A stretch of DNA of 64,000 nt from Desulfatiglandales bacterium. GTDB taxonomy: Bacteria; Desulfobacterota; DSM-4660; Desulfatiglandales; Desulfatiglandaceae. Position numbers and translations under genes: made by a program. The notes under the pieces are model-generated. The model was not told the DNA's origin. It was given only the letters and a program-made list of their open reading frames with translations, and did not search any database. The stretch lies in assembly GCA_963666345.1 (NCBI GenBank), contig OY762721.1:1120001-1184000 (forward strand), written 5' to 3'. Of this stretch, positions 18,431-41,468 are shown piece after piece (position 1 is the stretch's first letter; each line of letters begins with the position of its first letter).

Positions 18431-18464
18431 GAAAATAGAGTTAGAAACTATAAAGGAGGCAACC

Positions 18465-19685: not shown

Positions 19686-19702
19686 TTCACAGCATTAAAT
19701 AA

Positions 19703-20065
<363 letters not shown>

Positions 20066-20101
20066 TACCGATTAACCGAATGAACCGAGGGACTATCAAG
20101 T

Positions 20102-22723: not shown

Positions 22724-22869
22724 AAAAAAGCGCCTATCGTTCGTAAGATATCCGTTCATTTCGCAAATACGGTTAAAAGGTTCCTGCAAGGGATGCGACA
22801 ATACCAGGGGCAGGCGATCATGTCCTCCCCTGCCACCGGGGATCAAACAACTCGACAATGCCGGCCGAA

Positions 22870-23079
22870 TCGCCTTTAACCTGTAAAGCAATTTCTGTCC
22901 GTCGGGCCAGCGCTTTGCCTTCAGCTTCATTCAACCCCACCTCACGGTGACGCAGTTGCCGTTCAGCCAACACTTCCCCTTGACGGGCTGACGGGCGCGC
23001 GTATAGGACTTGAGTCCATACATACTTCTCGATACTTATTGAGTCTCACCTACAAGTGGATGCGCCCTGCCGGGCGCAC
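22870..23079 (-). mobile_element. 5' fragment (domain I) of a class IIC group II intron; no RT ORF or domain V visible
   Basis: Begins GTGCGCCCGGCAGGGCGCATCCACTTGTAGGTGA immediately after a terminator T-tail; 3' limit approximate. Confidence 0.75.
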
Positions 23080-23113
23080 AAACAAAAAGGCCGCAGGCAA
23101 AGACTGCGGCCTT
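23080..23113 (-). terminator. Intrinsic terminator of glnK2-amtB2
   Basis: AAGGCCGCAG-N7-CTGCGGCCTT followed by TTTGTTT. Confidence 0.85.
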
Positions 23114-23126
23114 GATAAATTATTGA

Positions 23127-24458: not shown

Positions 24459-24476
24459 TTTACCTATCCTCCGTTT

Positions 24477-24953
<477 letters not shown>

Positions 24954-25128: not shown

Positions 25129-25779
25129 TTAAAATTCAATCAGATCTATCGCCGTAAGGGTTGTGCGGTTCCTTGTTCCAGGTGCATTAACAAGATGCCA
25201 GGCAACATACTGCTCTGAATAAAGCCGGTCAGACATCCCGTCCACCGGCACTATAATATTCAATTTCCGCATCGCCGCCCCGATGGCTGTACCCAGAACT
25301 GCTCCGTTCGCAGCAGTGCCGACAATAATGACGGTCTTGATGCCTTTATCCGATAAAATCTTTTCCAGATCCGTGCCGTAAAATTTGTCTACCGAGGATT
25401 TGACTATTTTCTCCCCCTTTAACGGAGCGACCTCTTTTAAAATGGCTTCCGGCGTCCCTTTGCTGGTCAGGCTGTAGACGACAGGTATTCCCACAGCCCT
25501 CGCCTTTGTGACAAGTGTCTTGATTTTAGGAACAGAAGCTATACATCGAGGCCTTCTCTCTGAATTACAGGTTCGCTTTTCAATGTCCAAAACCAAAAGG
25601 GCCGTAACCTTGGAGTCCACTTTGACCGGTTTGATCGCAGGGGCCTCCGGCGCTTTGACGCTGGTCCATTCGTCAATAATCGTTTCATCTGCCCGAACAG
25701 GGCCTGTAAAAAACAAAAGAACGCCGAATAAAACGGTTCCCTTCATAATCATTTGTTGCATGTTTCCTTTAATAGTCAT
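25129..25779 (-). CDS. Isochorismatase/cysteine-hydrolase-fold protein, probably exported
   Basis: ALLVLDI, DKFYGTDLE, IIVGTAANGAV; hydrophobic leader ending VRA-DE. Confidence 0.8.
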   Translation of the reverse strand: MTIKGNMQQMIMKGTVLFGVLLFFTGPVRADETIIDEWTSVKAPEAPAIKPVKVDSKVTALLVLDIEKRTCNSERRPRCIASVPKIKTLVTKARAVGIPVVYSLTSKGTPEAILKEVAPLKGEKIVKSSVDKFYGTDLEKILSDKGIKTVIIVGTAANGAVLGTAIGAAMRKLNIIVPVDGMSDRLYSEQYVAWHLVNAPGTRNRTTLTAIDLIEF

Positions 25780-26013
25780 TTCTCTTAATCCTCCGATTGT
25801 TTTAATGCTGAGAAATGAAATGACACTATTCACGCATTTGTTTTCTGAAGGAGCTTTTGGATAACCAATCAGCATCGTGTTTCCTGATTGTAACTTCTTG
25901 GCCCAGCCGTGAGGACAAATAGGCTTGTGCTATAATGATGCAGTATTCAAATGGCAAGGCCACCGTATTCTATTTTAGACCACAGTAAGCAGATTTTTGA
26001 GGTATGATTAAAT

Positions 26014-26712
26014 TCACGGCACCTCCCAGAAGGGGCCTAGCTTCATGCCTTTAATTTTGTCGAGAAGTTCGTTTCTGAGAATAGGTCTGTTAGATATAAA
26101 GTCAGGATCCAGACGCCTGCGCATGTGTTCACATGAAAACAGACTGTGCAGATCGGCAAGAGAAATGATTCCATTTTCAGTACTTGGATCGAAAAGCACC
26201 CAATTACGAACATGTTCTTCCGACCGGAAGAAGTTCATGGTGCTTCAGGCGAAACTTATGTCATCGTACCACTTATTGAAAGGAACGGCCACATATCCTA
26301 CGATACCCTCAGGATCAACATTCAATATCTCACCATCTCGCATCTCAACACTTATCGGCTCCCCACAGTGCATGCAAACCGTATCGATCTGAACTTTTTT
26401 ACCTGGAAAAAGCCAGCTAACTGCCAGCGACTCGAAGGCTCACTGGCCAAACCACTTCTGCTCACCGTCCACAGTGATGGGATACTGGTTGGGAAGGTTG
26501 TTGAAAGGGGCCAGGGAAACGATGAGATCTGTTTTTGGAAAAACCCAGCCTGGAAGTATCTCTGAAAAAAGGGCCTGAACGGCTTTTCGGCCGTTCTCTA
26601 TGGAGACCCCAAGTGCCTCAGCTACTTCAGTGAAAAATGGGGCTTTCCCGGTTTCGACAAGACTTTTCATAATGCAGTGGTAGGTTTTGTCTAAGGTTGT
26701 AGGTTCTGACAT
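26014..26712 (-). CDS. MerB-like organometallic-lyase-fold selenoprotein with two Sec (U91, U156), 232 aa
   Basis: ORFs 26440-26712 and 26014-26238 are in one frame joined by TGA 26440-26442 (WFGQ-U-AFESL) and TGA 26245-26247 (SFA-U-STMNFFRSEEH); each is followed by a hairpin; GGAGG RBS. Confidence 0.85.
26206..26238 (-). promoter_or_regulatory. SECIS-like hairpin after the second TGA
   Basis: ATGAAC-TTCTTCC-GGTC-GGAAGAA-CAT-GTTCGT. Confidence 0.7.
26411..26432 (-). promoter_or_regulatory. SECIS-like hairpin after the first TGA
   Basis: AGTCGCTGG-CAG-TTAGCTGGCT; weak stem with a bulged U. Confidence 0.5.
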
Positions 26713-26751
26713 GGCTATTTACCTCCATTTATTATTCTAGTATGAACTCAA

Positions 26752-26767
26752 AGCAATATATGTGCCG
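26752..26767 (-). promoter_or_regulatory. sigma54 promoter of the Sec-MerB-like gene
   Basis: CGGCACATATATTGCT. Confidence 0.8.
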
Positions 26768-26894
26768 AACAGGCCTTGCCTTAATTAATAAGAAATCAAT
26801 GCCATTGTATTCAGTAGTATAAGGGCGAATTTTAGGGTAGCATAAAAATTAATTAATATTATCAACGCAATAACTGGACTGGCAATATTGCAAG

Positions 26895-28649
26895 TCATAA
26901 TGGCATTTCTGCCGTTTTTAGCTTTCTGTAAATTGTTGCAGGGTCCATCTTGAGGAATTTGGCAGCCTGCTTTACGCCACCATGTTTTTTAATTGCCGTT
27001 TTTAGCAGCGTTATCTCAAACTGTCTGACGGCATTCTTGAAGGAGCCCGCTTGCTGGATAGGATAATTGAGGAAGTCCTGTCTAAGCTCTGAGGGTAAGT
27101 CCTCCATGATGATTTCATCATGTGGGGTAACCAAAACGAGTCTTTCAATTAAATTGATCAGTTCTCTGACATTGCCGGGCCATTGAAAACCTATTAGATA
27201 ATCGATTACTTCTCGAGAAAAAAAGGCATTTTTATCATATTTGAGATTGGTCTTTTCGAGAAAGAAATTGATCATATGAAGAATATCGTCCGGTCTTTCC
27301 CTAAGAGGTGGGATAAAAATGGGAATGACGTTTATGCGAAAATAGAGATCCTTCCTGAAAGTTCCCTTTTCCACCATGCCTTTTAGATCACGGTTGGTAA
27401 TAACGATGAGCCGAACGTCAACCTTCTTGGGCGTAACACTTCCAATCCTTACGATCTCAAGGTCCTGAATCGTCCTTAAAATCTTGACTTGAAGGTTTTG
27501 GGGCATCTCTCCTATCTCATCCAGGATTAGGGTTCCTCCTTCGGCAGCTTCGAAAAGGCCTTGTTTGCCCTTTGCATCGGCACCGGTAAAGGCACCATGC
27601 TCGTAGCCAAAGAGCTCCGACTCCAGAAGATTTTCAGGTATGGCCCCACAGTTTATTTTGAGCAGGGGGCTGCTGTTGCGCGTTGAGTGCCTGTGAATAT
27701 AGTTGGCAATAACCTCTTTGCCTACTCCTGTCTCGCCCGTTATGAGCACAGGGGCATCCACCTGAGCAACACGCCCGGCCAGTTCAAAGGCTTGCCTGAT
27801 TGCCTTGGATTCAGCTACAATCTGGGCCTTTTCAAAGTGGTGCGTCTTAAGCCTTTCTATCTTTTCATGATATTGACTGTAAGGCCTTTTAGATTCAATG
27901 TTTTTACTTGATAGCCGCCTGATATCGCTTAGTTCCCTGACGTTACTGACAACCATGGTGATATCGCCGTTGTCATCAAATATCGGAGTTGCAGTGACAA
28001 GGGTCTCTTTTCCAGTGAACCATCTTTTCTGTAGAGTGAGTGTCCGCTTTTCCTTGAGTACCATTTTGGTTGCTGACCGGTTTGAAAAATACCCCTCCGT
28101 TTCCAGTTCAGCCACATTCTGTCCCAGGACCTCTCTGGCCGATATACCAGTAATCTTCTCCCAGGAGGGATTAACGCGTATTATGTTGCCTTCACCGTCG
28201 GTGATAAAAAAACCGTCGTAGGATGAATCAATAATCGCAACCATCTCTTCAATCATGTGGCGGCAGTCTTCACATTTATGGATATTCTCTTCAATTTCTG
28301 AGAAATCTTGAAGAATCGTCACCACCTTGATAAGCGATTCATTTTCTAGGATAGGGATCTGATTGACAACAATAGTACGGTCATCCCATTCGACTCTTTT
28401 CTCTTTCTCAAGTTTTACTCTTAACTGAAGATCCTGGAAGTCCTTCCAGATTTCAGGGATAACCTTGGAAATATTTTTCCTTTCCAGTTCCTCGGCTTTC
28501 AGCTTTAGTATTTTTTGTGCTTCAGTATTAAAAAATGCAATCAGGCCCTGGGGGTTAGTTATAATTATACCCTTGGGCGGTAATTCAAGCATCTTCTTGT
28601 ATGTGTCTTGCTCACTTTGAAGTATGTGATTTGATAATTGCAAAGACAT
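26895..28649 (-). CDS. PAS-PAS sigma54-dependent activator (copy 1)
   Basis: [31 protein letters not shown], Fis-type HTH. Confidence 0.93.
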   Translation of the reverse strand: MSLQLSNHILQSEQDTYKKMLELPPKGIIITNPQGLIAFFNTEAQKILKLKAEELERKNISKVIPEIWKDFQDLQLRVKLEKEKRVEWDDRTIVVNQIPILENESLIKVVTILQDFSEIEENIHKCEDCRHMIEEMVAIIDSSYDGFFITDGEGNIIRVNPSWEKITGISAREVLGQNVAELETEGYFSNRSATKMVLKEKRTLTLQKRWFTGKETLVTATPIFDDNGDITMVVSNVRELSDIRRLSSKNIESKRPYSQYHEKIERLKTHHFEKAQIVAESKAIRQAFELAGRVAQVDAPVLITGETGVGKEVIANYIHRHSTRNSSPLLKINCGAIPENLLESELFGYEHGAFTGADAKGKQGLFEAAEGGTLILDEIGEMPQNLQVKILRTIQDLEIVRIGSVTPKKVDVRLIVITNRDLKGMVEKGTFRKDLYFRINVIPIFIPPLRERPDDILHMINFFLEKTNLKYDKNAFFSREVIDYLIGFQWPGNVRELINLIERLVLVTPHDEIIMEDLPSELRQDFLNYPIQQAGSFKNAVRQFEITLLKTAIKKHGGVKQAAKFLKMDPATIYRKLKTAEMPL

Positions 28650-28680
28650 ATTTTTTGACCCAAGTCCGACTGTTTAAAGC

Positions 28681-29403
28681 CTATCCTCCCAGATAGGCTT
28701 CTTTAACTTTGTTGTTGTCCAACAGCTCTTCGGCAGGTCCTTCCAAGACTATTTCACCTGTTTCAAGCACGCATGCATGACTTGCGATCTTGAGAGCGGC
28801 TTTGGCATTCTGCTCTACCAATAAAATAGTAGAGCCTGTACGGTTCAGGTGTTTTATTGCTTCAAATATATCTCGGACAATTAAGGGGGCCAGACCCATG
28901 GAAGGTTCGTCTAAAAGAAGTAGATCTGGCTTTCCCATCAGCGCACGTGCGATCGCTAGCATCTGTTGTTCACCACCGGATAGGGTCCCGGCGATCTGTT
29001 CAGAACGCTTTTCCAGGACAGGAAACATGTTATATATAATCTCGATTCTTTCATTGATCTCCTGTCGAAATTTCCTTTTAAAGTATAGGAAAGCCCCAAG
29101 ATGAATATTGTCTTTAACAGAGAGGTGAGTAAAAATCTGTCTTCCTTCTGGAACCTGGGATATTCCTAATCCAACAACCCTGTTTGCCGGGAGATTGGCA
29201 ATATTTTTATTCTTATAAAGGATTTTACCCTTTTTTATCTTGATGAGCCCCGATATTGACTTTAAAAGTGTGGATTTCCCCGCCCCGTTTGCACCTATGA
29301 TTGAAAAAACCACCCCTTGAGGAATAGTAATTGAGATCCCTTTAAGTGCCAATATATTTCCATAGGATGTCTCAAGTCCTTCAATATTAAGCATCTTATT
29401 CAT
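28681..29403 (-). CDS. ABC transporter ATPase, LivF-like
   Basis: GANGAGKS, VPEGRQIF, LSGGEQQM, LDEPSMGLAP. Confidence 0.92.
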   Translation of the reverse strand: MNKMLNIEGLETSYGNILALKGISITIPQGVVFSIIGANGAGKSTLLKSISGLIKIKKGKILYKNKNIANLPANRVVGLGISQVPEGRQIFTHLSVKDNIHLGAFLYFKRKFRQEINERIEIIYNMFPVLEKRSEQIAGTLSGGEQQMLAIARALMGKPDLLLLDEPSMGLAPLIVRDIFEAIKHLNRTGSTILLVEQNAKAALKIASHACVLETGEIVLEGPAEELLDNNKVKEAYLGG

Positions 29404-30175
29404 TCCCTCCCAAGTATGCCTCAATTACTTTGGGGTCGTTTTGTATTTCTTCGGGTGGGCCTTCAGCTATCTTTTCCCCGTAGTTGAGAACCATAATTTC
29501 GTCAGAAATATTCATCACAACTTTCATATCGTGCTCTACAAGAAGCACTGTAATCCCCTGCTCCCTGATGGACCTTATAAGTGAAGATGCAACCTTGGTT
29601 TCAGTTTCATTAAGGCCTGCTACCGGTTCATCCAGGCATAAAAGATCAGGCTCAGTGGCCAGCGCCCTCCCTATTTCCAATGTTTTCTGGTCACCCAATG
29701 GCAGACTTCCCGAGGGTTCACGCATTTTATCCTTGAGACCGATAAATTCTAAAATTCCAATTGCTTTTGATTGAATATGTGTTTCTTTTCTTCTTGTCCT
29801 GGGGAACGCAAAGCCAGACGCCAGAAAAGATGACCGCGTTCTTGTGTGGCAACCAACCATTACGTTTTCGAGGACAGTCATATTGTCAAAAAGCTCAACA
29901 GTCTGAAAGGTTCTAGAGATTCCAAGATTGCAGATTTCGTGTGCTTTTAGCTGTTGAATGCTTTTTCCTTTAAAGCATATTGTTCCCCTAGTGGGAGGAA
30001 AGATGCCTGTTATGACATTAAATAGGGTAGTTTTTCCAGCGCCGTTTGGTCCTATAATGGCCTTAATGGTCCCCATTTTGACCTGAAAGTTCTGGTCATT
30101 AAGCGCCAGCAGGCCCCCAAAAACCATGCCCACTTTTTCCAATTCAAGGATGTTCTTATTGAATGATTCTTTCAA
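29396..30175 (-). CDS. ABC transporter ATPase, LivG-like
   Basis: GPNGAGKTT, RTFQ, LDEPVAG, VIEAYLG. Confidence 0.92.
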   Translation of the reverse strand: MKESFNKNILELEKVGMVFGGLLALNDQNFQVKMGTIKAIIGPNGAGKTTLFNVITGIFPPTRGTICFKGKSIQQLKAHEICNLGISRTFQTVELFDNMTVLENVMVGCHTRTRSSFLASGFAFPRTRRKETHIQSKAIGILEFIGLKDKMREPSGSLPLGDQKTLEIGRALATEPDLLCLDEPVAGLNETETKVASSLIRSIREQGITVLLVEHDMKVVMNISDEIMVLNYGEKIAEGPPEEIQNDPKVIEAYLGGNE

Positions 30176-30182
30176 TGTAGAT

Positions 30183-31136
30183 TCAGCTCCTAAACCATCT
30201 CTTTATAATTCCAGGTATGCCGACAAGTCCTTTTGGCAAGAATATGGTGACTAAAAGGAGGATGGCCCCGTACACCACAATCTCAAATTCCTCAAAAAAA
30301 TGTAGCCACTCATAGCTTAAAAATGTAATCAACCCAGCACCTATTATGGCGCCCCAAAGTTCATACATCCCTCCCAATGTAATCATTATGATAAGTTTAA
30401 TTGAAAAGGAGACGTCAAAGGTAGATGGGTTAACAAAGTTGAGGTAATGCGCGAATAAACTTCCCGCAAGAGAGGCCAGCATGGCCCCATATATAAAAAC
30501 AATTACTTTGAACCTTAATACATTTATGCCCATGGCACTAGCAGCTGCTTCACTGGAGTGGATAGCACGAAGAGCACGGCCCGTGCCTGACAGAACGACA
30601 TTTACAGAAAAAATAAAAGCCGCGAAAACAAAAGCCCAAACGAGGTAATAGTATTTTTCAGTGGTATCAAATTCAAATCCGAAAAGGCTGAGCATCGGAA
30701 TCCCGGTCATACCATCGGGACCGCCTGTTAAATCGACTTCTTGATTTAGAATTACGGAAACAATTATCCCGAATGCCATGGTAGCCATTGCAAGATAATG
30801 CCCTCTTAGCTTGAGGGAAGCCGGGCCTACCAATAGGGCCACAAGTCCTGAGAATATCATACCTATAGCCATGCAGAGCCATGAATTCAATCCATATCTT
30901 GCAGTAAGGATCCCTGAAACGTAGGCACCGATACCATAAAATGCCGCTTGACAAAGTGATATCTGGCCAGTGTAACCCAATAGCAAACTGAGACCGATGG
31001 TGATCAGGCTATAGATACCTGCGAATACCATCACGTCAGGATAGTGGGTAATGGCGGGAATGTGTTCAGCTATCCAGGGGAAACCTATTATGATGACAAA
31101 AAAAATTGCGATTGCCCGTTTTCGGATATGTAACAT
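30183..31136 (-). CDS. ABC transporter permease, LivM-like
   Basis: GYTGQISL.QAAFYGIGAY, LRGHYLAMAT. Confidence 0.9.
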   Translation of the reverse strand: MLHIRKRAIAIFFVIIIGFPWIAEHIPAITHYPDVMVFAGIYSLITIGLSLLLGYTGQISLCQAAFYGIGAYVSGILTARYGLNSWLCMAIGMIFSGLVALLVGPASLKLRGHYLAMATMAFGIIVSVILNQEVDLTGGPDGMTGIPMLSLFGFEFDTTEKYYYLVWAFVFAAFIFSVNVVLSGTGRALRAIHSSEAAASAMGINVLRFKVIVFIYGAMLASLAGSLFAHYLNFVNPSTFDVSFSIKLIIMITLGGMYELWGAIIGAGLITFLSYEWLHFFEEFEIVVYGAILLLVTIFLPKGLVGIPGIIKRWFRS

Positions 31137-31138
31137 AC

Positions 31139-32041
31139 CTAAAACCTTTTCATTTTACTAATTTCTACGTTGCCTAAAAGCCCGCTAGGTTTAAAGAAGA
31201 GCACTCCCAGAATTACTATTAAGGCAAAAGCATCTTTATATGCTGAGGATATTAAACCTGAACCGAATGATTCAATAGACCCCAGGATCAATCCACCAAT
31301 GATAGCACCAGGAAAACTGCCAAGACCTCCCAGCATTGCTGCGCCAAATGCCTTAATTGCCAACTCCGCTCCCCTGTCATATTCCATGAAGGTTATAGGG
31401 GTTACAATGATGCCAGCTATTGCACCGATAGACGCGGAAAGCGCAAAAGATAATGAAAACATTAGCTTAACATTGATACCAACTAGACTTGCTGCATCCG
31501 GGTTATCCGCGCATGCGCTCATAGCCTTGCCGAGGATGGTTTTTCCAAAAAATATGGTCAGGGATATTGCAACCAGAACCAGAAAGCCCATAACCCAGAA
31601 ATATTGGGGTTGGATTACAGCACCAAAAAACTGAATGGGGTTGCGACCTGATAAAGCAGGAAGATCAAAAGGATCTTTACCCCAAATAAGCATGGCTGCT
31701 CCCTTTAGCAGGAAAGAAAAGGCCAAAGTAGCTATGATAAGTGTAAGTACCGAGGGCTGCTTGATCGGCCTAATTGCAAGTCGATCAAGTAGGATTCCCA
31801 CCAGGGTTACAAGGAGGACAGTTGCGGGGAAGGCTATAATAAGAGGCAGTCCAGCTGCAGTGTGAAAAGAAACCATGGCCAGCCCTCCCAGCATGACAAA
31901 CTCACCCTGCGCAAAGTTTATGACCTCAGTAACATTGTAAATAATACTGAAGCCTACTGCTACCATTGCATATATGCTGCCTACAGTGAGCCCGGTTATT
32001 AGATACTGAAGGAGCTCACCTGTTAATGTCAATTCTTCCAT
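31139..32041 (-). CDS. ABC transporter permease, LivH-like
   Basis: GSIYAMVAVGF, INFAQGEF, GGLGS. Confidence 0.9.
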   Translation of the reverse strand: MEELTLTGELLQYLITGLTVGSIYAMVAVGFSIIYNVTEVINFAQGEFVMLGGLAMVSFHTAAGLPLIIAFPATVLLVTLVGILLDRLAIRPIKQPSVLTLIIATLAFSFLLKGAAMLIWGKDPFDLPALSGRNPIQFFGAVIQPQYFWVMGFLVLVAISLTIFFGKTILGKAMSACADNPDAASLVGINVKLMFSLSFALSASIGAIAGIIVTPITFMEYDRGAELAIKAFGAAMLGGLGSFPGAIIGGLILGSIESFGSGLISSAYKDAFALIVILGVLFFKPSGLLGNVEISKMKRF

Positions 32042-32059
32042 ATTTACTCCCGTCAAAAG

Positions 32060-32086
32060 TGAGGGGTGGCAGTTATGCCACCCTCA
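32060..32086 (-). terminator. Stem-loop between binding-protein and permease genes
   Basis: GAGGGGTGGCA / TGCCACCCTC inverted repeat. Confidence 0.5.
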
Positions 32087-32115
32087 TCTGCTGACTTTGC
32101 CGGCATGGGAATTTT

Positions 32116-33279
32116 TTAGTTTGCCGGTGCCCAGTTATCACCCTTAACTTTTACCAGGGTAAAAGATTCCTGCCAATTCAGGCCGATATGATCGTCCGCG
32201 GACATGTTAAATGTACCATGTTGGCCGATAAAGTTTCTGGTATTTTCAACTTCGTTTCGGATACCTTCCTTGTCGCAGCCAACGGCCTTTATAGCCTTTA
32301 CCACAAGCATGAGGGCATCCCATGCGTGTCCGCTGAAGGTGGCTATCGGCTCATTATATTTGGCCTCATAATCTGTAACAAACTTCATACAAACATCTTT
32401 TTGCTGTGATTCCGGGAGTAGCGTAGCGATATTGCAAGGGCCGAGAGGGCAATGAACACCTTCAGCTGCGCCTGCTGCCAGTTCTATATTCTTGAGATTG
32501 CCAAAGGCCTGGCTTCGATAAAGAGGGATTGAAGACATACCGAGATCTTGCCAGTTTCTCATCAAGACTACCGAGCTGGGGCCAATCCCCCAGTTACAAA
32601 TTGCCTTAGCTCCTTTTGACTTGATTTTAGTCAATTGCGCTGTTATATCTTGATCTTTCGGCCCATAAGTCTCGTCTGCTACAATTTCCATTCCATATTT
32701 GGGGGCTAATCGGAGCAGCTCTTGTCTGCCACTCTTACCAAATCCTGATGTAAGGGTTATGACAGCGATTTTATTTATACCTCGCTTTTTAAGATGTGAG
32801 TAGTTGGCTTCCACACCCATTGTGTCGCTCTGAGGAGTCTTGAAGACCCATTTACGTATTTTTTTCGTCTTATCGTTGTAAACAATTTTATAACTGGCGG
32901 CACAGGTCACAAGGGGTGTTTTAAGTCTTTTTGCTTCATCAACAATCGCAAGCGAAGTTCCGCTCAATGAAGGCCCTATTACCGCACAGACCTTGTCCTG
33001 CGTAACCAGTTTTCTAAAGAAAAGTCTTGTCTTGGTAGAATCGCCCTCAGTGTCGTAGAGAATTACTTCCAACTTTTTCCCATTGATGCCGCCCGATGTG
33101 TTGATTTGGTCAACCAATAAATTAACTGTTTTCTTTTCAGGATCACCAATAAATGATGCGCGTCCGGTTACAGAAAAAAGTGCCCCAACTTTGTATGAAT
33201 CGCCACTGAAAGCCAAGGTGGGGAGGATAAAGGATAATGAAATAAAGGTGCCTAATACAATAAATAAATGCTTTTTCAT
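32116..33279 (-). CDS. Periplasmic substrate-binding protein, branched-chain-amino-acid (PBP type 1) family
   Basis: Signal peptide; GGINGKKLEVILYD, VIGPS.SG, HAWDA. Confidence 0.9.
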   Translation of the reverse strand: MKKHLFIVLGTFISLSFILPTLAFSGDSYKVGALFSVTGRASFIGDPEKKTVNLLVDQINTSGGINGKKLEVILYDTEGDSTKTRLFFRKLVTQDKVCAVIGPSLSGTSLAIVDEAKRLKTPLVTCAASYKIVYNDKTKKIRKWVFKTPQSDTMGVEANYSHLKKRGINKIAVITLTSGFGKSGRQELLRLAPKYGMEIVADETYGPKDQDITAQLTKIKSKGAKAICNWGIGPSSVVLMRNWQDLGMSSIPLYRSQAFGNLKNIELAAGAAEGVHCPLGPCNIATLLPESQQKDVCMKFVTDYEAKYNEPIATFSGHAWDALMLVVKAIKAVGCDKEGIRNEVENTRNFIGQHGTFNMSADDHIGLNWQESFTLVKVKGDNWAPAN

Positions 33280-33559
33280 TCCTCTTTCTCCTATTTGCTA
33301 AAATTGACAAAATATAAAATCATACAAGAAAAACTTAAGCAATACTGAATTCACCCCCTTTCTTATCAAAATTTTGTGCTTCCGGGTTAGGTTGAAAACT
33401 ATGTTCGTATTACGTGAGTATTCTTTCTTTTCTCCAGGCGCCCAATCTTGATTTCACTGTCTCTATATTCCAGGCTCGTACATGATCAAGTTTTGAAAAA
33501 TTATCGGCCCGTTAATCAGCCCCTTTTTTCTTTATTACCTTGGCTGTGTTAGTGCACTG

Positions 33560-34010
33560 ATTGTATACATCACACCACAACGCTGGGTCTTACCCGGTGA
33601 GGGTTTTTGACTAACGATGAAACGCTCACACGCCTTGACATCGGTAAGGAATATTTTCCCAGGGATGCAGTGGTTGATATCATGGCGTACTTAGAGGTCG
33701 GTCTTTATTAAACCTTTCCCGATAGTACACCAAGTTAATGGAATGGGTTGTATCAATTAAAGAACCATCTAGCACCGTGAAGTCCCCAAGCTTCTTGTGA
33801 TTTATTTGGAACATGCTGCAAGTCAGAATATAATAGGTATCTAAGACTTTTAATCTCTGTCGAGTCCTGGTGTATTGTTGATCTAAAATAAACTGCTACC
33901 TTATACCCGCTTTGGGGCTATACTTTCTTGTGCAAAATCATATTCATTTGAGGACTTGCACGAGGTATTTCCTTTTAAAGTGCTCTTTAAGGTAAAAACA
34001 TATAGGGCAT
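33560..34010 (-). pseudogene. Heavily decayed IS4-family transposase
   Basis: Frame-broken peptides LGDFTVLDGSLIDTT and DINHCIPGKIFLTDVKACERFIVSQ resemble an IS4 DDE region; boundaries approximate. Confidence 0.6.
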
Positions 34011-34323
34011 CCGGCTGCCGGGGGAATTATATCTTAAAGATGCTGGTCAGGAGTTCGGATAGTTTGTTAGATAGCGGTGACTCTTTCTTCCTGCCTTCTG
34101 CTTTGATAATGTAACGAATGTCCTTAAAATGCATGTACTTCCAAATAACCTGAGGCTTTACAAAATAAGTTTTTCAATTATAGGGCATAAATTATCTTTT
34201 ACTTCATGACAATCGATTGCAAGTTTCTAATCGGATGAAAATATTATAAGGAAAGTTCTATTAGAGATGAGTTTCTTTCCATTCCTGTTCGCTATTATGC
34301 TAAAAGGCTTTTTGTTATTTTTT

Positions 34324-34339
34324 AGCAATATCTGTGCCG
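34324..34339 (-). promoter_or_regulatory. sigma54 promoter facing the ABC operon
   Basis: CGGCACAGATATTGCT. Confidence 0.75.
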
Positions 34340-34547
34340 TATGGCCCATACCATTTTTAATAAAGGATTAAGGCTATTGTATTCAATAGCATAAGAACTC
34401 AAAGGGAGGGGGGTGGACATAGAAAAATATGGATAGAAATGGGAAGCTCAAAACTGCAATAAGTCAACACCCTGGCGGCCAAATTTAGGGGAGAATAAAA
34501 ATAAATTAATATTATCAACGTGATAACTGGACTGGCAATATTGCAAG

Positions 34548-36287
34548 TCATAATGGCATTTCTGCCGTTTTTAGCTTTCTGTAAATTGTTGCAGGGTCCA
34601 TCTTGAGGAATTTGGCAGCCTGCTTTACGCCACCATGTTTTTTAATTGCCGTTTTTAGCAGCGTTATCTCAAACTGTCTGACGGCATTCTTGAAGGAGCC
34701 CGCTTGCTGGATAGGATAATTGAGGAAGTCCTGTCTAAGCTCTGAGGGTAAGTCCTCCATGATGATTTCATCATGTGGGGTAACCAAAACGAGTCTTTCA
34801 ATTAAATTGATCAGTTCTCTGACATTTCCGGGCCATTGAAAACCTATTAGATAATCGATTACTTCTCGAGAAAAAAAGGCATTTTTATCATATTTGAGAT
34901 TGGTCTTTTCGAGAAAGAAATTGATCATATGAAGAATATCGTCCGGTCTTTCCCTAAGAGGTGGGATAAAAATGGGAATGACGTTTATGCGAAAATAGAG
35001 ATCCTTCCTGAAAGTTCCCTTTTCCACCATAGCTTTTAGATCACGGTTGGTAATAACGATGAGCCGAACGTCAACCTTCTTGGGCGTAACACTTCCAATC
35101 CTTACGATCTCAAGGTCCTGAATCGTCCTTAAAATCTTGACCTGAAGGTTTTGAGGCATCTCTCCTATCTCATCCAGGATTAGGGTTCCTCCTTCGGCAG
35201 CTTCGAAAAGGCCTTGTTTGCCCTTTACATCGGCACCGGTAAAGGCACCATGCTCGTAGCCAAAAAGCTCCGACTCCAGAAGATTCTCAGGTATGGCCCC
35301 ACAGTTTATTTTGAGCAGGGGACTGCTGTTGCGCGTTGAGTGCCTGTGAATATAGTTGGCAATAACCTCTTTGCCTACTCCTGTCTCGCCCGTTATGAGC
35401 ACAGGGGCATCCACCTGAGCAACACGCCCGGCCAGTTCAAAGGCTTGCCTGATTGCCTTGGATTCAGCTACAATCTGGGCCTTTTCAAAGTGGTGCGTCT
35501 TAAGCCTTTCTATCTTTTCATGGTATTGACTGTAAGGCCTTTTAGATTCAATGTTTTTACTTGATAGCCGCCTGATATCGCTTAGTTCCCTGACGTTACT
35601 GACAACCATGGTGATATCGCCGTTGTCATCAAATATCGGAGTTGCAGTGACAAGGGTCTCTTTTCCAGTGAACCATCTTTTCTGTAGCGTGAGTGTTCGC
35701 TTTTCCTTGAGTACCATTTTGGTTGCTGACCGGTTTGAAAAATACCCCTCCGTTTCCAGTTCAGCGACATTCTGTCCCAGGACCTCTCTGGCCGAAACTC
35801 CAGTTATTTTTTCCCAGGAGGGATTTACGCGTATTATGTTGCCTTCGCCGTCGGTGATAAAAAAGCCGTCGTAGGATGAATCAATAATCGCAACCATCTC
35901 TTCAATCATGTGGCGGCAGTTTTCACATTCAAGGAGGTTTTCTTCAACGCCTGAGACATCCTGAATTAGAATCATAACTCTGATAACCGTATCTTTGTCT
36001 ATGATAGGGATCTGATTGACAACAATAGTACGGTCATCCCATTCGACCCTCTTTTCTATCTCATGTTCGGCTCCAATCAGGATATCCTGGAAGTCCTTCC
36101 ATGCCTCAGGGATGATGTCGGAAATATGCTTCCTTTCCAGTTCATCGGTTGAAAGTTTCAGTATCTTGATAGCTTCAGGATTAAAAAAGGTAATCAGGCC
36201 CTGGGGGTCAGTTATAATGATGCCCTTGGAGGGTAATTCAAGCATCTTCTTATTCGTTTCTTGTTCACCCTGCAATATACGATTCAT
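34548..36287 (-). CDS. PAS-PAS sigma54-dependent activator (copy 2)
   Basis: Same motifs; nearly identical to copy 1 from CRHMIEEM onward. Confidence 0.93.
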   Translation of the reverse strand: MNRILQGEQETNKKMLELPSKGIIITDPQGLITFFNPEAIKILKLSTDELERKHISDIIPEAWKDFQDILIGAEHEIEKRVEWDDRTIVVNQIPIIDKDTVIRVMILIQDVSGVEENLLECENCRHMIEEMVAIIDSSYDGFFITDGEGNIIRVNPSWEKITGVSAREVLGQNVAELETEGYFSNRSATKMVLKEKRTLTLQKRWFTGKETLVTATPIFDDNGDITMVVSNVRELSDIRRLSSKNIESKRPYSQYHEKIERLKTHHFEKAQIVAESKAIRQAFELAGRVAQVDAPVLITGETGVGKEVIANYIHRHSTRNSSPLLKINCGAIPENLLESELFGYEHGAFTGADVKGKQGLFEAAEGGTLILDEIGEMPQNLQVKILRTIQDLEIVRIGSVTPKKVDVRLIVITNRDLKAMVEKGTFRKDLYFRINVIPIFIPPLRERPDDILHMINFFLEKTNLKYDKNAFFSREVIDYLIGFQWPGNVRELINLIERLVLVTPHDEIIMEDLPSELRQDFLNYPIQQAGSFKNAVRQFEITLLKTAIKKHGGVKQAAKFLKMDPATIYRKLKTAEMPL

Positions 36288-37021
36288 TGATTCTCTTTCA
36301 TGACTTATCGATGTTCTGAATGATGTTTACTTCAAAATCGTCTTTATATCCGGAGCAAGCCAAAGAAATCTTACCCCATATATCAAAGCAAAACCAGCAT
36401 TAACACCCCTAATATATAATGATATCTAACATATCATGCCATGATATTCAATGATGTTCGTTGAGTTTATAAAACACCGAAACCGGCAATAAGTGCCTTA
36501 ACTTAGCAAAATGGTATGATTCGCCCAATCCACCGGCGAATGATAACCATGTAAGTCTATTCTGCGAAAGGACAACAGAGCAAAACGAGTCCCAAAACAA
36601 AAGATCCAAATGCAACAATGCTTTCAACTAAAACTCATATTCGATTCCCTATGAATATCCGATTTAGCTTGTCTTTGAGGCTATTTTCTTATTAATTTAA
36701 TAATAAATATAAAAGGATGTAAGCTATCATTATTGGATTAAATGTATATGCAGGATCGAAGTATAGGCATATTGCTATTTCCATAAACTTGAAAACTGCA
36801 AGTTCGCGATAATAAGCTGCAAAAATGCAAATGCTTTATCCTATTGATAACATTAAAAAAAATAATTTTATTTATAAAATTAGAGCTGGATAAGATGATA
36901 TTATGCGGCTTTACCTCTCTGCTTTTCTCCAATAAAGTTCAGTGCATATTTCCCCCTTTTGTACCCTTATCCTGTCGAATACAATAGACTTAATCCTTTA
37001 TTAAAGCTGGCAGGGGTCATA

Positions 37022-37037
37022 CGGCACAGATATTGCT
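37022..37037 (+). promoter_or_regulatory. sigma54 promoter of the methyltransferase operon
   Basis: CGGCACAGATATTGCT, identical to 34324-34339. Confidence 0.8.
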
Positions 37038-37308
37038 GAAGAAAAGGCTGATTCCTCGGTGGAATAGTCGTTTATGTTTTTTTGTCTGCATTGGTAAATG
37101 GGGAACTGAAGGGATTTGGTGAAAAGCTGAAAAAGGCCTTTGGAACAAGTTATAAAATCCCAACTTACTCGATTGTGAATCAGTGAGGGGACTTTTATTA
37201 ATGCATATCTAAAGTGGATGTTTCTCCGTATGTCTATTTGGGAGAAGGTGATAAAAGTTTTTCCAGGCACTTCATTTATAATTTTTATGGCCCCTATTCA
37301 ACCGCTTT

Positions 37309-37520
37309 GAGAAAATAGGACCGGATTTAATCGCGGCGGTTATCCTACCTGTTTGGAGAAGTTTGGGGGTGATGTAAAGAGTGGAGATTATAAGCTCGAT
37401 GTGAAAGATATCACCCAGCTACTCAAAGAGGCCATCTTACGGATTGATCATCCGGAAAAACAGAAACCGTTATCGCACCCGAGGATTTTTAAAGACTTTA
37501 TAAGAAGGAGTATTTCATGA
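37309..37520 (+). pseudogene. Relic resembling the C-terminus of a CCG-domain Fe-S oxidoreductase
   Basis: EKIGPDLIAA/(frameshift)YPTCLEKFGGDVKSGDYKLDVKDITQLLKEAI; its TGA overlaps the next ATG. Confidence 0.45.
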
Positions 37521-38899
37521 AGATTTCGTTGCCGGAAATTTTATTGAGGTCAAAAGAGGGCCAGTTTATGGAGGAAAAGCAATTTGACCTGGCCCTCTTT
37601 AAAAAGACCCAGGAGCTCCAAAAAAAATACCACATCAAATATGATCCGGGAAAACCCCTGGACACCGAAGGGGACTTGGCAGACAGGATCTATCAGGCTG
37701 GAGTTGAACTTTTTACGGAACTTGGGACTTTTTGTGTCACCACCAATAGGGTTATCAATGTATCGGAAAAAGAGCTTTTTGCCGCCATTGATACTTGCCC
37801 AGAGGAAATTGAATTAGGCCAGGGAAATGAGCGGGTCAAGATGGGCCATCGAGATGTAGAAGGCGATCAGCAGGTCGTTGTGGTAGCAGGTATTCAAACC
37901 GCACCCTACAGCGACGAAGCTCATATGTTCATGATTTACAAGGGATGTGCCATGGATCGCTGTGTGGACGGGATATGGGGAGGCATCCTTTTGAAGAACG
38001 ACGGTAAGTACGATGTCATAGCTGGCACACCATCCGAGATCTATCAGTACAGAAAAACGGTGGAAATACTGAGAAAGGCCGTTACTGCGGCGGGGCGACC
38101 AGGGCTGATTACCATCAGCAATGCGCCGACCAGTGGAGCCACCATTGCCATGTTTGATGAAGAAATGGGACTTCGACGCACCGATTACATGGAAAGCACT
38201 GGCATGTCGGAGTTGAAGGTGGCCTATGATGACCTGAATCGATCGGCCTTTGCCCTTGCCCACGGGGTAAGCATCCACGGCACCCACAGCTCCACCATCG
38301 GAGGATTTTCAGGCAACCCTGAAGGCGCAACAATAACGGCTGTGGCGGGAAGCCTTCAACTTATAGCAATACATTTTGCAGATAGCTTTCGATGCGGTAC
38401 TGTAGATTCAAGAATCAAGGCCCGTCAGAGTAGAAGTCAGTTATGGTCGGCAGGTTCAGCCATTCAGGCGCTTAGCAGGAACACCAAGCTTATCGTTGAC
38501 GGCAGTATTGGAGACCACCCGGCAGCAGGTCCCGGCACCAAACAATATTTTTATGAGAGCGCGGCAGGCCATATTGTATCGACGGTAATGGGAGGTCATT
38601 CCACAGAGGGAACCCGTAAATTCACAGTGGGAAACACCTGTAATTACGGGACGCCTCTTGAGTCCCGATGGATGGGGGAAGTTTGCAAGGCGGCCGTAGG
38701 TATGGATCGAAAAACGGCGGAGCAAATCGTCTTGTATCTTTTAAGCAAATACGAAGACCATCTCATGGATGCTCCTGAAGGAGAGACTTTCGATGGCCTT
38801 TATGACCCGAAGCATATGTTACCCAACCAACATTATCAGACCCTGTATGACGAAGTCAAAAAGGAGCTTAAGGATATTGGAATCAATTTTATCGATTAA
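37517..38899 (+). CDS. Monomethylamine:corrinoid methyltransferase (MtmB) family, non-pyrrolysine
   Basis: AGRPG, ELKV, IGGFSG, AGPGT, ESRWMGEV and APEGETF..Y motifs; no in-frame TAG. Confidence 0.88.
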   Translation: MKISLPEILLRSKEGQFMEEKQFDLALFKKTQELQKKYHIKYDPGKPLDTEGDLADRIYQAGVELFTELGTFCVTTNRVINVSEKELFAAIDTCPEEIELGQGNERVKMGHRDVEGDQQVVVVAGIQTAPYSDEAHMFMIYKGCAMDRCVDGIWGGILLKNDGKYDVIAGTPSEIYQYRKTVEILRKAVTAAGRPGLITISNAPTSGATIAMFDEEMGLRRTDYMESTGMSELKVAYDDLNRSAFALAHGVSIHGTHSSTIGGFSGNPEGATITAVAGSLQLIAIHFADSFRCGTVDSRIKARQSRSQLWSAGSAIQALSRNTKLIVDGSIGDHPAAGPGTKQYFYESAAGHIVSTVMGGHSTEGTRKFTVGNTCNYGTPLESRWMGEVCKAAVGMDRKTAEQIVLYLLSKYEDHLMDAPEGETFDGLYDPKHMLPNQHYQTLYDEVKKELKDIGINFID

Positions 38900-38911
38900 T
38901 GGAGAAAAAAT

Positions 38912-39574
38912 ATGGAAATAGAAAATTTGGCTGAAGAACACAAACAAATCTTGGATTCACTTATGCGAGCCATAGTCGACATAGATGACGAAAAAGCCAC
39001 GACCATCGCCGAAAAAATCATTGAACAAGAAATCAATCCTAGCCTTGCCATCAAATATTCCATCTCGAATGCTGCTATAGGGATTGGAGAAAAATTTGAT
39101 TCTGGAGAATACTTCCTTGCCCATCTTGTCATGGCTGGAGATTTGATGGCTTCGGTGGGCAAAATCCTGGAGCAAAATATCCCTATAGAAACACGCGAAA
39201 GAAAAAAAGTAGCCGTCATCGGTGCAGTGCAGGGCGATATGCATACTGTAGGAAAGAACCTGGTGTCTACCATGTTACGTTCCGGCGGATTTGAGGTCTA
39301 TGATATGGGAGTCGACGTGCCCAGCATGGCATTTATAGAAAAGGCAAAAGAACTTGATGCAGACCTGATTGCCCTCTCTTCTCTGCTAACCACAACAATG
39401 CCCTATCAGAAAGAGGTAATTGAGGATCTGGCAGCAATGGGTCTCAGAGACCGTTTCAAGGTTATGGTGGGTGGGGGTCCTGTAACAAGAAGCTATGCTG
39501 AAAAAATTGGGGCTGATGGGTATGGTAAAGACGCCATCGAAGCACTAGAAGAAGCGAAGAAAATTTGCGCATAA
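38912..39574 (+). CDS. Corrinoid (B12-binding) protein, MtmC/MttC-like
   Basis: GDMHTVGKNLV (DxHxxG), SSLLTTT, MVGGGP, GADGY. Confidence 0.93.
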   Translation: MEIENLAEEHKQILDSLMRAIVDIDDEKATTIAEKIIEQEINPSLAIKYSISNAAIGIGEKFDSGEYFLAHLVMAGDLMASVGKILEQNIPIETRERKKVAVIGAVQGDMHTVGKNLVSTMLRSGGFEVYDMGVDVPSMAFIEKAKELDADLIALSSLLTTTMPYQKEVIEDLAAMGLRDRFKVMVGGGPVTRSYAEKIGADGYGKDAIEALEEAKKICA

Positions 39575-39599
39575 CAATATAATATGAAAGGCTTATGAG

Positions 39600-40967
39600 A
39601 TGATATCTTTGTATGAAATTGCCGAAAGAACTCAAACTGGTGAAAAAGTGGAAGAAAAGAAATGGGATATGGAATTCTACCAAAACATCAGTGAGCTTCT
39701 CAAGAAATACCAAATACAGACCCCTGACGACCACTGCTATATTAATATGGATGATGAATTGCCTGAAAGAGCCTTTGAGGCAGCTATCGAATTTTTGGAA
39801 AAAACTGGGATCTACTGCATTACTACCAGAAGACGGATAAAGCTCACTAGAGAGGAAATCCTAACTGCAATTAACGAAGCTCCTACTGAAATTTTGATGG
39901 GCGAAGGAAGGGACCGAAGGGTCTGGAAACAACGCAGCATAGAAGAAAAGGAGAAGGTTAATGTCTGTCCAGGCCATCATACTCCTTTTACGGAAGATTT
40001 GGCAGGACTTGTGGTGAGTAATTTTGCCCAGATCCCCAGGACCGACTTTATTGAAGGATTCAATTTTTCCGAAGTCGATGGTCGAGAAATAATGGGGCCA
40101 CCCATGGAAGTATACGCTTCCAGGCGCCAGGTGGGATGGATGAGAGAAGGCATTCGTAAGGCTGGAAGGCCTGGCTTGGCCATTGTCTATTATCCTATTA
40201 ATACGAGAGCGGAAGATCTTATAGGTGCAATAGACCCCGATCATGGGATCAGAAGAACAGACGGCGTCTTGCTTTCCCTTTTGCCGGATTTGAAAATGGA
40301 ACAAGATATGCTATCAGCAGCCATTGTCTACGAGGAATATGGATCCTTTAAACTGAGCGGCAGTTTTGCCATCGCAGGTGGATTCTGTGGCGGTATGGAA
40401 GGCGCAATCATCGAAGGGATCGCTAAGCCTATTGCAGCCATGATTGCCTATCGGGACTATATCAATTACACCGGCGTAGAACATGTTCATATGCTTAACG
40501 CAAGAGTAATTCTGCTTCCATGGATCAATTGGGCTCGTTCCGTTGTGAATCAGGCCTTAAACCGTTTCACTCACACACTGTGTATGCGCTGGATCATACC
40601 AACCTCGGGGCCGGGTACCGAATTGAATCTTCTTGAAGGTGCAATGCAATCCATTGAGGCCCCCATAAATGGTATGAATCTCTATGCTCCAAGGCATTGC
40701 CGAACGACGGTTAACCATGGACAAACACCACTGGAAGCTGAATGGATGATTCAGGTTAGCGATGCGGTAATTGAACAGGGATTCGACAGACGAGCAGCTG
40801 ATGAAATTTTGTCGAAGATTGCCGATGTTATTAAGGATGAAAAGCCGGCAGAAGGCTTTGATATAACTCAGTGTTATGATCTTGTTCACCACAGACCACT
40901 GCCAGAATACCAAAACGTCTACATGAAAGTAAAAACGGAACTTGCAAATATGGGTCTGAAAATTTAA
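39600..40967 (+). CDS. Second MtmB-family methyltransferase, non-pyrrolysine
   Basis: ERTQTGEK..WD, AGRPG, GGFCGG.EG, SGPGTE, CYDL...P..EY motifs; no in-frame TAG. Confidence 0.88.
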   Translation: MISLYEIAERTQTGEKVEEKKWDMEFYQNISELLKKYQIQTPDDHCYINMDDELPERAFEAAIEFLEKTGIYCITTRRRIKLTREEILTAINEAPTEILMGEGRDRRVWKQRSIEEKEKVNVCPGHHTPFTEDLAGLVVSNFAQIPRTDFIEGFNFSEVDGREIMGPPMEVYASRRQVGWMREGIRKAGRPGLAIVYYPINTRAEDLIGAIDPDHGIRRTDGVLLSLLPDLKMEQDMLSAAIVYEEYGSFKLSGSFAIAGGFCGGMEGAIIEGIAKPIAAMIAYRDYINYTGVEHVHMLNARVILLPWINWARSVVNQALNRFTHTLCMRWIIPTSGPGTELNLLEGAMQSIEAPINGMNLYAPRHCRTTVNHGQTPLEAEWMIQVSDAVIEQGFDRRAADEILSKIADVIKDEKPAEGFDITQCYDLVHHRPLPEYQNVYMKVKTELANMGLKI

Positions 40968-41421
40968 GGTTCTTCTCCAACTTAGTTGGCGAAGAGGGTC
41001 CAAGGACCCTGGGAGTCAAGGCCCGCCCTGTCGCGACTCTGTGATCACTTAAATTATAGGCCAAGCTCCACATTGCCGACAATTTATTGACAATCCAGTA
41101 AGGTTAATAGGTCTGGGCCAGGGGTTCAAGGGATTGTTTTCTAAAGAGTTTATCAGCATTTTTAACAAGATTTATTGATCTCCGTGTAATTTATGTTGTT
41201 TGAGAATTTTTGATTTATTCTATATACCTGAAAAGCGTTCGTGGGATTTCTGCAACAGCTTTAAATCTTTGTAATGCTTTAGCGGTGTTATCAGCCGTTT
41301 CAATGGAGCACTCGAATCCTTGAATCCTCGACCCCTTCGAAACTGGGAACCCGCTGCGAAGCAGTGGGACTGAGCGAAGCAAAGAGTCCTTCATTTAGAT
41401 CAACTCTTTTGGAGATGGACC
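40968..41421. mobile_element. TIR-bounded element with an internally deleted four-helix-bundle gene (copy A)
   Basis: Ends GGTTCTTCTCCAACTTAGTTG / CAACTCTTTTGGAGATGGACC; minus-strand relics LKHYKDLKLLQKS and MLINSLENNPLNP. Confidence 0.65.
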
Positions 41422-41468
41422 CCAAATCTTTAATTGAGCCCATACCAATATCCTCTCAACATTATTAA

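Follow-up and report, generated by a model that had tools for sequence, protein, structure and literature searches.

A likely lineage-specific sigma54 regulon of a two-selenocysteine MerB-like gene, a Liv-type importer and a pyrrolysine-free MtmB cassette in a Desulfatiglandales bacterium

Three gene modules that otherwise evolve apart appear to have been brought under common sigma54 control in one lineage; this is the reading that we consider likely for a locus in a Desulfatiglandales genome. The locus lies in a window of 64,000 nucleotides (assembly GCA_963666345.1, contig OY762721.1, positions 1,120,001 to 1,184,000), and all feature coordinates given below are positions within this window. 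A first-pass annotation had described a two-selenocysteine (Sec) MerB-like gene, a Liv-type ABC operon, a pair of non-pyrrolysine MtmB genes with a corrinoid gene, near-identical -24/-12 promoters before the three units, and two near-identical PAS-AAA+ activators between them, and each of these descriptions is borne out by the data presented here. Its interpretation stands in part: Sec recoding, non-pyrrolysine MtmB, probable co-regulation in this genome and a liv–merB link in one close relative are retained, and a conserved three-part pathway is not.

A MerB-like protein with two selenocysteines

The merB-like gene (26014..26712, minus strand) encodes 232 amino acids with a MerB fold (PF03243, 85 bits) and contains in-frame TGA codons at positions 91 and 156. 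Its predicted structure (pLDDT 96) matches MerB 3f0o in Foldseek (E 4e-11, TM about 0.6-0.7). Sec91 and Sec156 align with Cys96 and Cys159 of MerB and Glu94 aligns with Asp99, a position held by Glu in 68 of 74 aligned proteins; there is also a buried CxxC at 113-116. The second Sec codon (U156) and its SECIS-like hairpin (26195..26247, minus strand) form a stable element (-20.9 kcal/mol, z -3.75) with synonymous sites frozen in TGA forms: within the hairpin the codons TTC, CGG and TCG are kept in 73/73, 71/73 and 73/73 sequences, respectively, and are unfrozen in the two Cys forms. The hairpin 3' of the first Sec codon (U91, 26440..26442, minus strand; hairpin 26412-26428) is weak, being no more stable than shuffled sequences (z 0.13), yet it recurs among relatives.

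Among 68 MerB-like relatives, the codons at the two catalytic sites are TGA/TGA in 54, Cys/TGA in eight, partial/TGA in five and Cys/Cys in one. The source genome encodes tRNA-Sec and selA, and selA was present in 30 of 32 carrier genomes in one set and four of five in another. On this comparative evidence, the merB-like product is a true double selenoprotein. If the TGA codons were instead real stops, the gene would be a pseudogene or a split gene, a reading that could draw on the ATG found at +7 past TGA156 in all 73 TGA-bearing sequences and on the weakness of the first hairpin. However, the TGA codons fall exactly at both catalytic cysteines and alternate there with Cys codons, and together with the frozen hairpin codons and the Sec machinery of the source and carrier genomes this makes real stops very improbable. 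In databases, 33 of 73 MerB-like matches are annotated as full-length proteins with Trp at both sites, and another 33 end at the second TGA.

The closest described protein types are SaoL and MerB. SaoL, the MerB-like selenoprotein of the SAO locus (NF040728; Haft and Gwadz, bioRxiv 10.1101/2022.07.06.499078), shares with the merB-like product the MerB fold, Sec at the Cys159 position, anaerobic hosts and truncation by annotation pipelines. In contrast to SaoL, the product also carries Sec in place of Cys96, has Glu where Asp99 would be, and shows A-U where SaoL has its CU motif; it scores 43 bits on NF040728 against a cut-off of 140 (two true SaoL controls scored 164 and 148), and a quick tree places it on a separate branch. 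No Sao family of the nine-gene SAO locus was found among the window genes scanned, nor were there conserved neighbours at MerB-like loci. MerB itself (PDB 3F0O; NF033555) shares the whole fold and the catalytic-triad positions, whereas identity is about 20%, Sec/Glu/Sec replaces Cys96/Asp99/Cys159, the NF033555 score is 35 bits against a cut-off of 200, and no mer operon accompanies the gene. A mercury system was considered and rejected, neither MerA nor HgcA being found over cut-off in the source genome.

The two-Sec clade was detected in 39 of 400 sampled genomes of the same phylum. It is absent from the accessible part of a 2026 selenoprotein inventory, including the families of Haft and Tolstoy (2025, mSystems) as tabulated in a 2026 review. 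The clade is little known and distinct from both SaoL and MerB. Its neighbours vary, except in one syntenic Dehalococcoidia/SAR202 group (9-10 loci) beyond which no conserved neighbour was found, and no mer or ars family occurred among the 87 nearest neighbours that were Pfam-scanned (of about 740 ORFs). The gene is usually stand-alone; in the source genome it rides with the Liv operon. As to chemistry, the leading, still tentative prediction is activation by two selenolates with Glu-assisted protonolysis of a carbon-metal(loid) bond; some other nucleophilic or redox chemistry is a possible but less likely alternative, and metal binding only is unlikely.

Promoters, activators and importer

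One sigma54 -24/-12 box lies 40 bp before the merB-like start (26752..26767, minus strand), in a copy of the liv promoter segment; the liv box itself is at 34324..34339 (minus strand), and an inverted copy of the liv promoter segment (36966..37043, plus strand; 86% over 78 bp) holds the third (37022-37037). With at most one mismatch, the 16-mer occurs three times in the 4.16-Mb genome, always at this locus, and the locus boxes are three of the 17 sites genome-wide that match YGGCAC-N5-TTGCW, so that their grouping is not due to chance. The three promoters have about 60 more upstream bases in common and are duplicated segments, a feature that the first-pass annotation overlooked. The boxes are conserved at 15-16 of 16 bases, against 4-13 of 40 for the drifted bases next to them, and this conservation despite flank drift suggests selection for co-regulation. 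In addition to the boxes, the genome has activators with GAFTGA motifs and RpoN (an RpoN-box motif is present). Co-regulation of the three units in the source genome is probable.

Two of the boxes are distant from the first genes of their units, at 1045 bp upstream of livK and 480 bp before mtmB-A, distances that had also escaped the first reading. These AT-rich gaps contain no pseudogene remnants recognisable against the genome or neighbour sets, and no Rfam match was found in 23000-44000.

Activator 1 (26895..28649, minus strand), with two PAS domains, an AAA+ domain with GAFTGA and an HTH, is inserted between livF and merB and is a duplicate of activator 2 (34548..36287, minus strand), a PAS-AAA+-HTH protein that scores 409 bits as PrdR against a cut-off of 795. 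The two share 92% protein identity and 93.9% DNA identity over 1808 bp, with GAFTGA intact in both. Their 3' two-thirds are 98-100% identical, which indicates that the duplication is recent or homogenised. An assembly artefact was ruled out as its source, as an independent metagenome contig has activator 2, liv and the start of activator 1 as well as the cassette.

The importer genes livK-H-M-G-F (28681..33279, minus strand) have the five-gene architecture of HAAT/Liv importers with binding proteins like 3SG0, 4DQD and 3TX6; among solved structures the binding protein is closest to 3SG0 and 4DQD, and the best matches have E values of 4e-36 to 6e-23. In contrast to true LivK and UrtA, the importer stays under the respective cut-offs. 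The three solved relatives presumably bind aromatic acids. In three other genomes, the genes that come after Liv orthologues (65-79% identity) encode an acyl-CoA ligase or regulators, and more distant paralogues (47-57%) lie within sigma54 operons with a methyltransferase-corrinoid fusion. Elsewhere, an orthologue of the activator (57%) drives a sigma54 box and a TAXI transporter. In the closest relative, G061, liv (83-91% amino acid identity) runs into merB (86%) over a 44-bp gap, followed by an AOR gene, and no activator or sigma54 box stands between liv and merB. This is the only relative in which merB occurs with orthologous liv. Contigs from three RNA libraries, all belonging to a single study, tile livK with 97-100% identity, and in one run isolated short fragments match the merB-like, corrinoid and mtmB-B genes; these matches are small shares and come from contigs only, and hence are no evidence of co-expression.

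The paired MtmB cassette

The third module consists of mtmB-A (37517..38899, plus strand; 460 aa, clade A), a gene for the cognate corrinoid (B12-binding) protein (38912..39574, plus strand; 220 aa) and mtmB-B (39600..40967, plus strand; 455 aa, clade B), whose product is 31% identical to that of mtmB-A. Both MtmB homologues give full-length PF05369 matches (264 and 217 bits) and adjoin the corrinoid gene. They are pyrrolysine-free: neither frame contains an in-frame TAG, Ile or Val occupies the Pyl202 position, and no tRNA-Pyl was found among 47 tRNAs. The PF05369 family and an adjoining cognate corrinoid protein are common to the cassette, to the Pyl-containing MtmB of Methanosarcina barkeri (1L2Q/1NTH) and to MtqB/MtqC of Methanococcoides methylutens Q3c, a non-Pyl MtmB system for tetramethylammonium and choline (PMC13044021). 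Like MtqB, the cassette MtmBs have no pyrrolysine; unlike either system, the cassette is a fixed bacterial trio in which two deeply diverged clades surround one corrinoid gene. It is complete in 26 of the 29 loci with room to show it, and its MtmB branch comprises 572 clusters at E<=1e-100.

Elsewhere the cassette stands beside six or more types of transporter; its neighbours include Liv, TRAP, TAXI, TTT, Opp, sugar-type ABC and SSS transporters, AOR, aminotransferases and dehydratases. This context was too varied for a substrate to be deduced, and the attempt was given up; N-methyltaurine, raised by one dehydratase/aminotransferase context, was dropped when that context did not recur. The first-pass annotation had seen no corrinoid activator or methyl-THF transferase, which is true of the window; however, the genome encodes both outside it. 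RACo-type activators are found at 1,048,060 and 3,497,704, a methyl-THF:corrinoid methyltransferase at 1,052,253, and CdhD-family (AcsC/D-like) and pterin-binding genes at 2.14-2.15 Mb, so that one corrinoid activator and the methyl-THF transferase are about 95 kb from the locus.

Linkage in other genomes and possible function

According to the first-pass model, the locus would encode one pathway, in which a methylated organometal(loid) or onium compound is imported, demethylated by the MtmB pair, and its residue cleaved or detoxified by the Sec-MerB protein. In its favour are the three conserved boxes of identical type, the liv–merB linkage in G061 and, in the accessible part of one report, a correlation between methyltransferase transcription and arsenic demethylation in Methanosarcina-dominated soil (10.64898/2026.08.27.747368). 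The MerB-like gene is over-represented among genomes with MtmB (4/10 versus 39/400, p about 0.01-0.03, confounded by kinship), and the only other genome among the 400 with the cassette also has a MerB-like gene. Of 50 MerB-like genomes one, G064 (identical with G210), carries the cassette, on another contig. This weak co-occurrence at genome level keeps the idea of one pathway alive. However, the co-localisation test by which the first-pass annotation had proposed to refute its own model came out largely against it: profile searches detected MtmB in none of 68 MerB-like loci (877 kb of flanking sequence) and a MerB-like gene in none of 40 cassette loci (295 kb, on mostly short contigs of which 13/40 reach 8 kb, those of the nearest cassette relatives, at 87-90%, being read over a short range). 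MtmB was present in seven of the 50 MerB-like genomes and none was shown in the other 43. A separate search of 60 relatives found the MerB-like gene in 11 and MtmB in one, which had no MerB-like gene; the missing MtmB of G061 is not proof, this genome being about 78% complete. Added to the acyl-CoA ligases that accompany Liv orthologues, and to the lack of MerA and HgcA over cut-off and of mer or ars families among the neighbours scanned, these results make a single pathway unlikely, and the MerB-like protein probably takes no part in the methyltransferase pathway.

It is similarly doubtful that the modules lie together by accident and that their regulation is decaying, with promoter copies that arose as by-products of recent duplication and distant liv and mtm boxes that no longer act. 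The long AT-rich gaps without a recognisable coding remnant and the near-identity of the activators' 3' two-thirds would fit such decay, as would the finding that none of the 64 other merB-like genes and none of the 27 non-self cassettes examined has a sigma54 box upstream. Against it stand boxes preserved amid diverged neighbours, intact activators and the RpoN-box motif in the genome.

Under the lineage-specific regulon that we favour, an activator and promoter unit would first have driven a livKHMGF-merB operon. This unit would then have been duplicated, with one copy landing between livF and merB, and an inverted promoter copy would have come to stand before the portable MtmB-A/corrinoid/MtmB-B cassette. 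A ligand sensed by the PAS domains may turn on all three promoters. The importer would take up a small organic acid or amine, and MtmB-A, MtmB-B or both would methylate the Co(I) corrinoid, with an N-methylated substrate or, less likely, an O- or S-methylated one as the methyl donor. The enzymes encoded about 95 kb away would reactivate the cobalt and pass the methyl group to tetrahydrofolate for the Wood-Ljungdahl pathway.

The locus thus appears to be a clear case of a regulon built by promoter duplication, with only a weak clue to its substrate, and the paired cassette brings a large branch, as yet uncharacterised, to a family in which one Pyl-free member has been characterised. Conceivably, but improbably in our estimate, the two-Sec clade could be a carbon-metal(loid) lyase of anaerobes that has been overlooked, being found in roughly one in ten genomes of the phylum and invisible to Cys96/Asp99/Cys159 surveys. 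In this lineage it would have been recruited, with the importer and an obligately paired non-Pyl MtmB cassette, into a catabolic route that supplies the Wood-Ljungdahl pathway with methyl groups taken from a methylated organometal(loid) or onium compound. How methylmercury is demethylated in anoxic sediments is described as poorly resolved, and the ancestral function of MerB as not known, in the available part of one study (PMC10114901), and merB surveys, as far as the accessible part of another describes them, demand Cys96/Asp99/Cys159 (PMC12484752). Since surveys screen for this triad and gene callers cut or mistranslate the gene, the double-selenolate MerB fold has been missed and is a testable candidate that may be relevant to anoxic methylmercury demethylation.

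Gene content of the locus

The gene content described in the first-pass annotation was confirmed in full in the source genome, a single contig of 4.16 Mb that is 96.7% complete and of which the window covers positions 1,120,001–1,184,000. On the minus strand, the sigma54 activator 2 (34548–36287) is followed by a −24/−12 box (34324–34339), which a 1045-bp gap separates from livK, the first gene of the importer operon livKHMGF (28681–33279). Activator 1 (26895–28649), a second box (26752–26767) and the merB-like gene (26014–26712) come next. The plus strand carries a third box (37022–37037) 480 bp before mtmB-A, which forms a cassette with a corrinoid gene and mtmB-B (37517–40967). L073, an independent metagenome contig of this organism, has the identical gene order between the cassette and the beginning of activator 1, which rules out an assembly error as the source of the activator duplication.

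The locus adjoins a nitrogen-assimilation cluster (18415–24944; two ammonium transporters, GlnD and PII-like genes) with two more sigma54 boxes, at 18415 (plus) and 24934 (minus). Directly downstream of the merB-like gene, on the same strand, lies an isochorismatase-family hydrolase (25129–25875); a partial copy (51468–51890), 96% identical, occurs at a distance of 26 kb, close to an ISL3 transposase. A non-coding repeat 3′ of mtmB-B (40950–41450) matches some 63 sites across the genome and has related pieces on contigs of other organisms; a search of Rfam with it gave no match.

A two-selenocysteine MerB-like family

Translation of the merB-like gene with TGA read as selenocysteine (Sec, U) yields 232 residues, of which U91, U156 and Glu94 align with Cys96, Cys159 and Asp99 of MerB. 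Its AlphaFold model (pLDDT 96) significantly matched only MerB structures (3F0O, E 4e-11). Among 68 related loci, drawn from species genomes, TGA occupies both sites in 54, Cys and TGA in 8 and Cys alone in 1, while 5 are partial and carry the second TGA. Downstream of the second TGA, the codons TTC (73/73), CGG (71/73) and TCG (73/73 TGA-bearing sequences) form a hairpin, and the two Cys forms of the gene have other codons at these positions. In the gene studied here this hairpin has a z of −3.75 and a loop that resembles the SECIS of E. coli fdhF, whereas the first TGA is followed by a weak hairpin (z 0.13). The host encodes tRNA-Sec and selA; among the carrier genomes tested, 30 of 32 and 4 of 5 have a selA that scores above the cut-off. 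By these comparative criteria, the gene encodes a double selenoprotein, as the first-pass annotation had proposed, with TGA at both catalytic-Cys positions alternating with Cys in relatives. That both codons are real stops is very improbable.

The two-TGA form was found in 39 of 400 genomes of the same phylum and, beyond it, in Chloroflexota and Gemmatimonadota among others; one contig (G034:C170, loci L124/L134) carries it in two tandem copies. Elsewhere in the window, an MsrA match (53843–54373) begins at profile position 28, and its N-terminus may hide behind a recoded TGA.

By profile score, the protein is neither SaoL (43 bits versus a cut-off of 140) nor canonical MerB (35 bits versus 200); as controls, one MerB1 and two genuine SaoL proteins exceeded these cut-offs. 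Similarly, a quick FastTree of 34 rows, with modest deep supports, separates the Glu-bearing family from both. SaoL is described as having a single Sec, placed within a CU motif, together with Cys99/Asp102, and as belonging to a nine-gene locus (Haft and Gwadz, bioRxiv 10.1101/2022.07.06.499078), and Table 1 of a 2026 inventory of 119 families gives SaoL, with one Sec, as its sole MerB-like entry (PMC13188914). Literature searches, which covered PMC9312934, PMC12013277, PMC13326102 and PMC5029168 by term only, turned up no account of the two-Sec form, of which prior notice is possible. We infer lyase chemistry for the protein. Cys-only, Glu-bearing sister clades (L206–L211; about 30% identical) occur in the same phylum, below all NCBIfam cut-offs where tested.

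The paired MtmB cassette

Both MtmB homologues match PF05369 (mutual identity 31%) and have Ile or Val at the pyrrolysine position of M. barkeri MtmB; they thus lack pyrrolysine, in agreement with the initial description. An mtmB-A orthologue (57–88%) was found in 40 non-self metagenome loci, some of which represent the same organism sampled twice. The corrinoid gene and then mtmB-B follow it in 26 of the 29 that extend at least 1 kb beyond mtmB-A, with highly varied neighbours around the cassette. A quick tree places A and B in two clades that are well separated, and clade B comprises 572 clusters at E ≤ 1e-100. The trio is therefore a conserved module of its own. Few assembled genomes carry it: 1 of 400 from the phylum and, among 104 from the family, a single fragment. 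This patchiness fits a portable cassette.

The one characterised pyrrolysine-free MtmB, MtqB, demethylates tetramethylammonium and choline (PMC13044021), and for this reason an N-methyl compound would be the default guess for the donor. Given their fixed pairing, A and B may form a heteromer or carry out two methyl transfers in succession. The corrinoid activator and methyl-THF transferase, missing from the window as the first-pass annotation had observed, are encoded elsewhere in the genome: RACo-type activators at 1,048,060 and 3,497,704, a methyl-THF:corrinoid transferase at 1,052,253 (312 bits, cut-off 259), and CdhD-family and pterin-binding genes at 2.14–2.15 Mb. Methyl groups could thereby flow to the Wood-Ljungdahl pathway. 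Two further MttB-corrinoid pairs are present, as is a large corrinoid cluster (L119, genome 1,048,000–1,072,000) that includes a RACo activator and a methyl-THF transferase, MtaA-like and URO-D-family methyltransferases, duplicated 650-aa B12 fusion proteins and TRAP transporters.

Linkage and regulation of the modules

It had been proposed that the three units form one sigma54-regulated pathway. Purpose-built profiles, which recovered every one of their own loci, detected MtmB at none of the 68 MerB-like loci, whose flanks total 877 kb (5 kb or more on each side in 34 loci). The converse search detected the MerB-like gene at none of the 40 cassette loci (295 kb in all; 13 loci of 8 kb or longer). 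Conserved linkage of the modules is thus absent, and a conserved system joining the MerB-like gene to the methyltransferases is not upheld. Among 60 relatives, 11 carry the MerB-like gene (9 with two TGA) and one, without it, carries MtmB. Any MtmB occurs in 7 of the 50 MerB-like genomes searched (from the 68), and this cassette in one, on a different 6-kb contig. There is a weak co-occurrence at genome level: 4 of 10 MtmB-positive genomes among the 400 have the two-Sec gene (p 0.011, with kin not independent and searches differing in sensitivity; p 0.03 once two same-genus pairs are merged), which counts against a reading as independent modules.

The assembly of the closest relative, G061, is 78% complete; there the Liv operon (83–91%) leads straight into the merB-like gene across a 44-bp gap, followed by an AOR gene, and no MtmB was found in this assembly. 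LivK orthologues (65–72%) head the same operon in G533, G530 and G515, where it is followed by an acyl-CoA ligase in two and regulators in one, and the Liv genes near four other MerB-like loci are unrelated (at most 50%). From these results, liv and merB are linked at the level of the lineage, and the MtmB link is seen only in this genome. Distant Liv paralogues occur in sigma54 operons ending with a methyltransferase-corrinoid fusion (L187:9944–17468, L191:8504–16103); these also hold a 416-aa protein without assigned family and may represent a system for the demethylation of aryl methyl ethers.

The three boxes greatly exceed chance expectation, but they are duplicated segments and not independent acquisitions. 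The near-identical activators reflect a duplication of 34477–36284 at 26824–28631 (93.9%). Similarly, 26752–26823 matches 34324–34395 at 75%, and 36966–37043 is an inverted copy of 34318–34395 (86%). Decaying or accidental regulation is a reading that we consider unlikely: the box (15–16 of 16) and an AT-rich block spanning roughly −60 to −17 (30–35 of 43) are conserved while the 40 bases downstream of the box have drifted (4–13 of 40), a pattern that favours retained function. The three units would then be co-induced in the host. A single dedicated pathway is likewise improbable; the genome-level co-occurrence speaks for it, and the absence of linkage speaks against it. No such box was found in the 300 bp that precede each of 64 other merB-like genes, nor in the 700 bp before 27 non-self cassettes, so sigma54 control of both is, on sequence grounds, local. 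The activator-box-transporter layout recurs in G002 with a TAXI transporter.

The locus is thus probably a lineage-specific regulon of independent modules, and its lasting value lies in two components, the two-Sec MerB-like family and the paired MtmB cassette.
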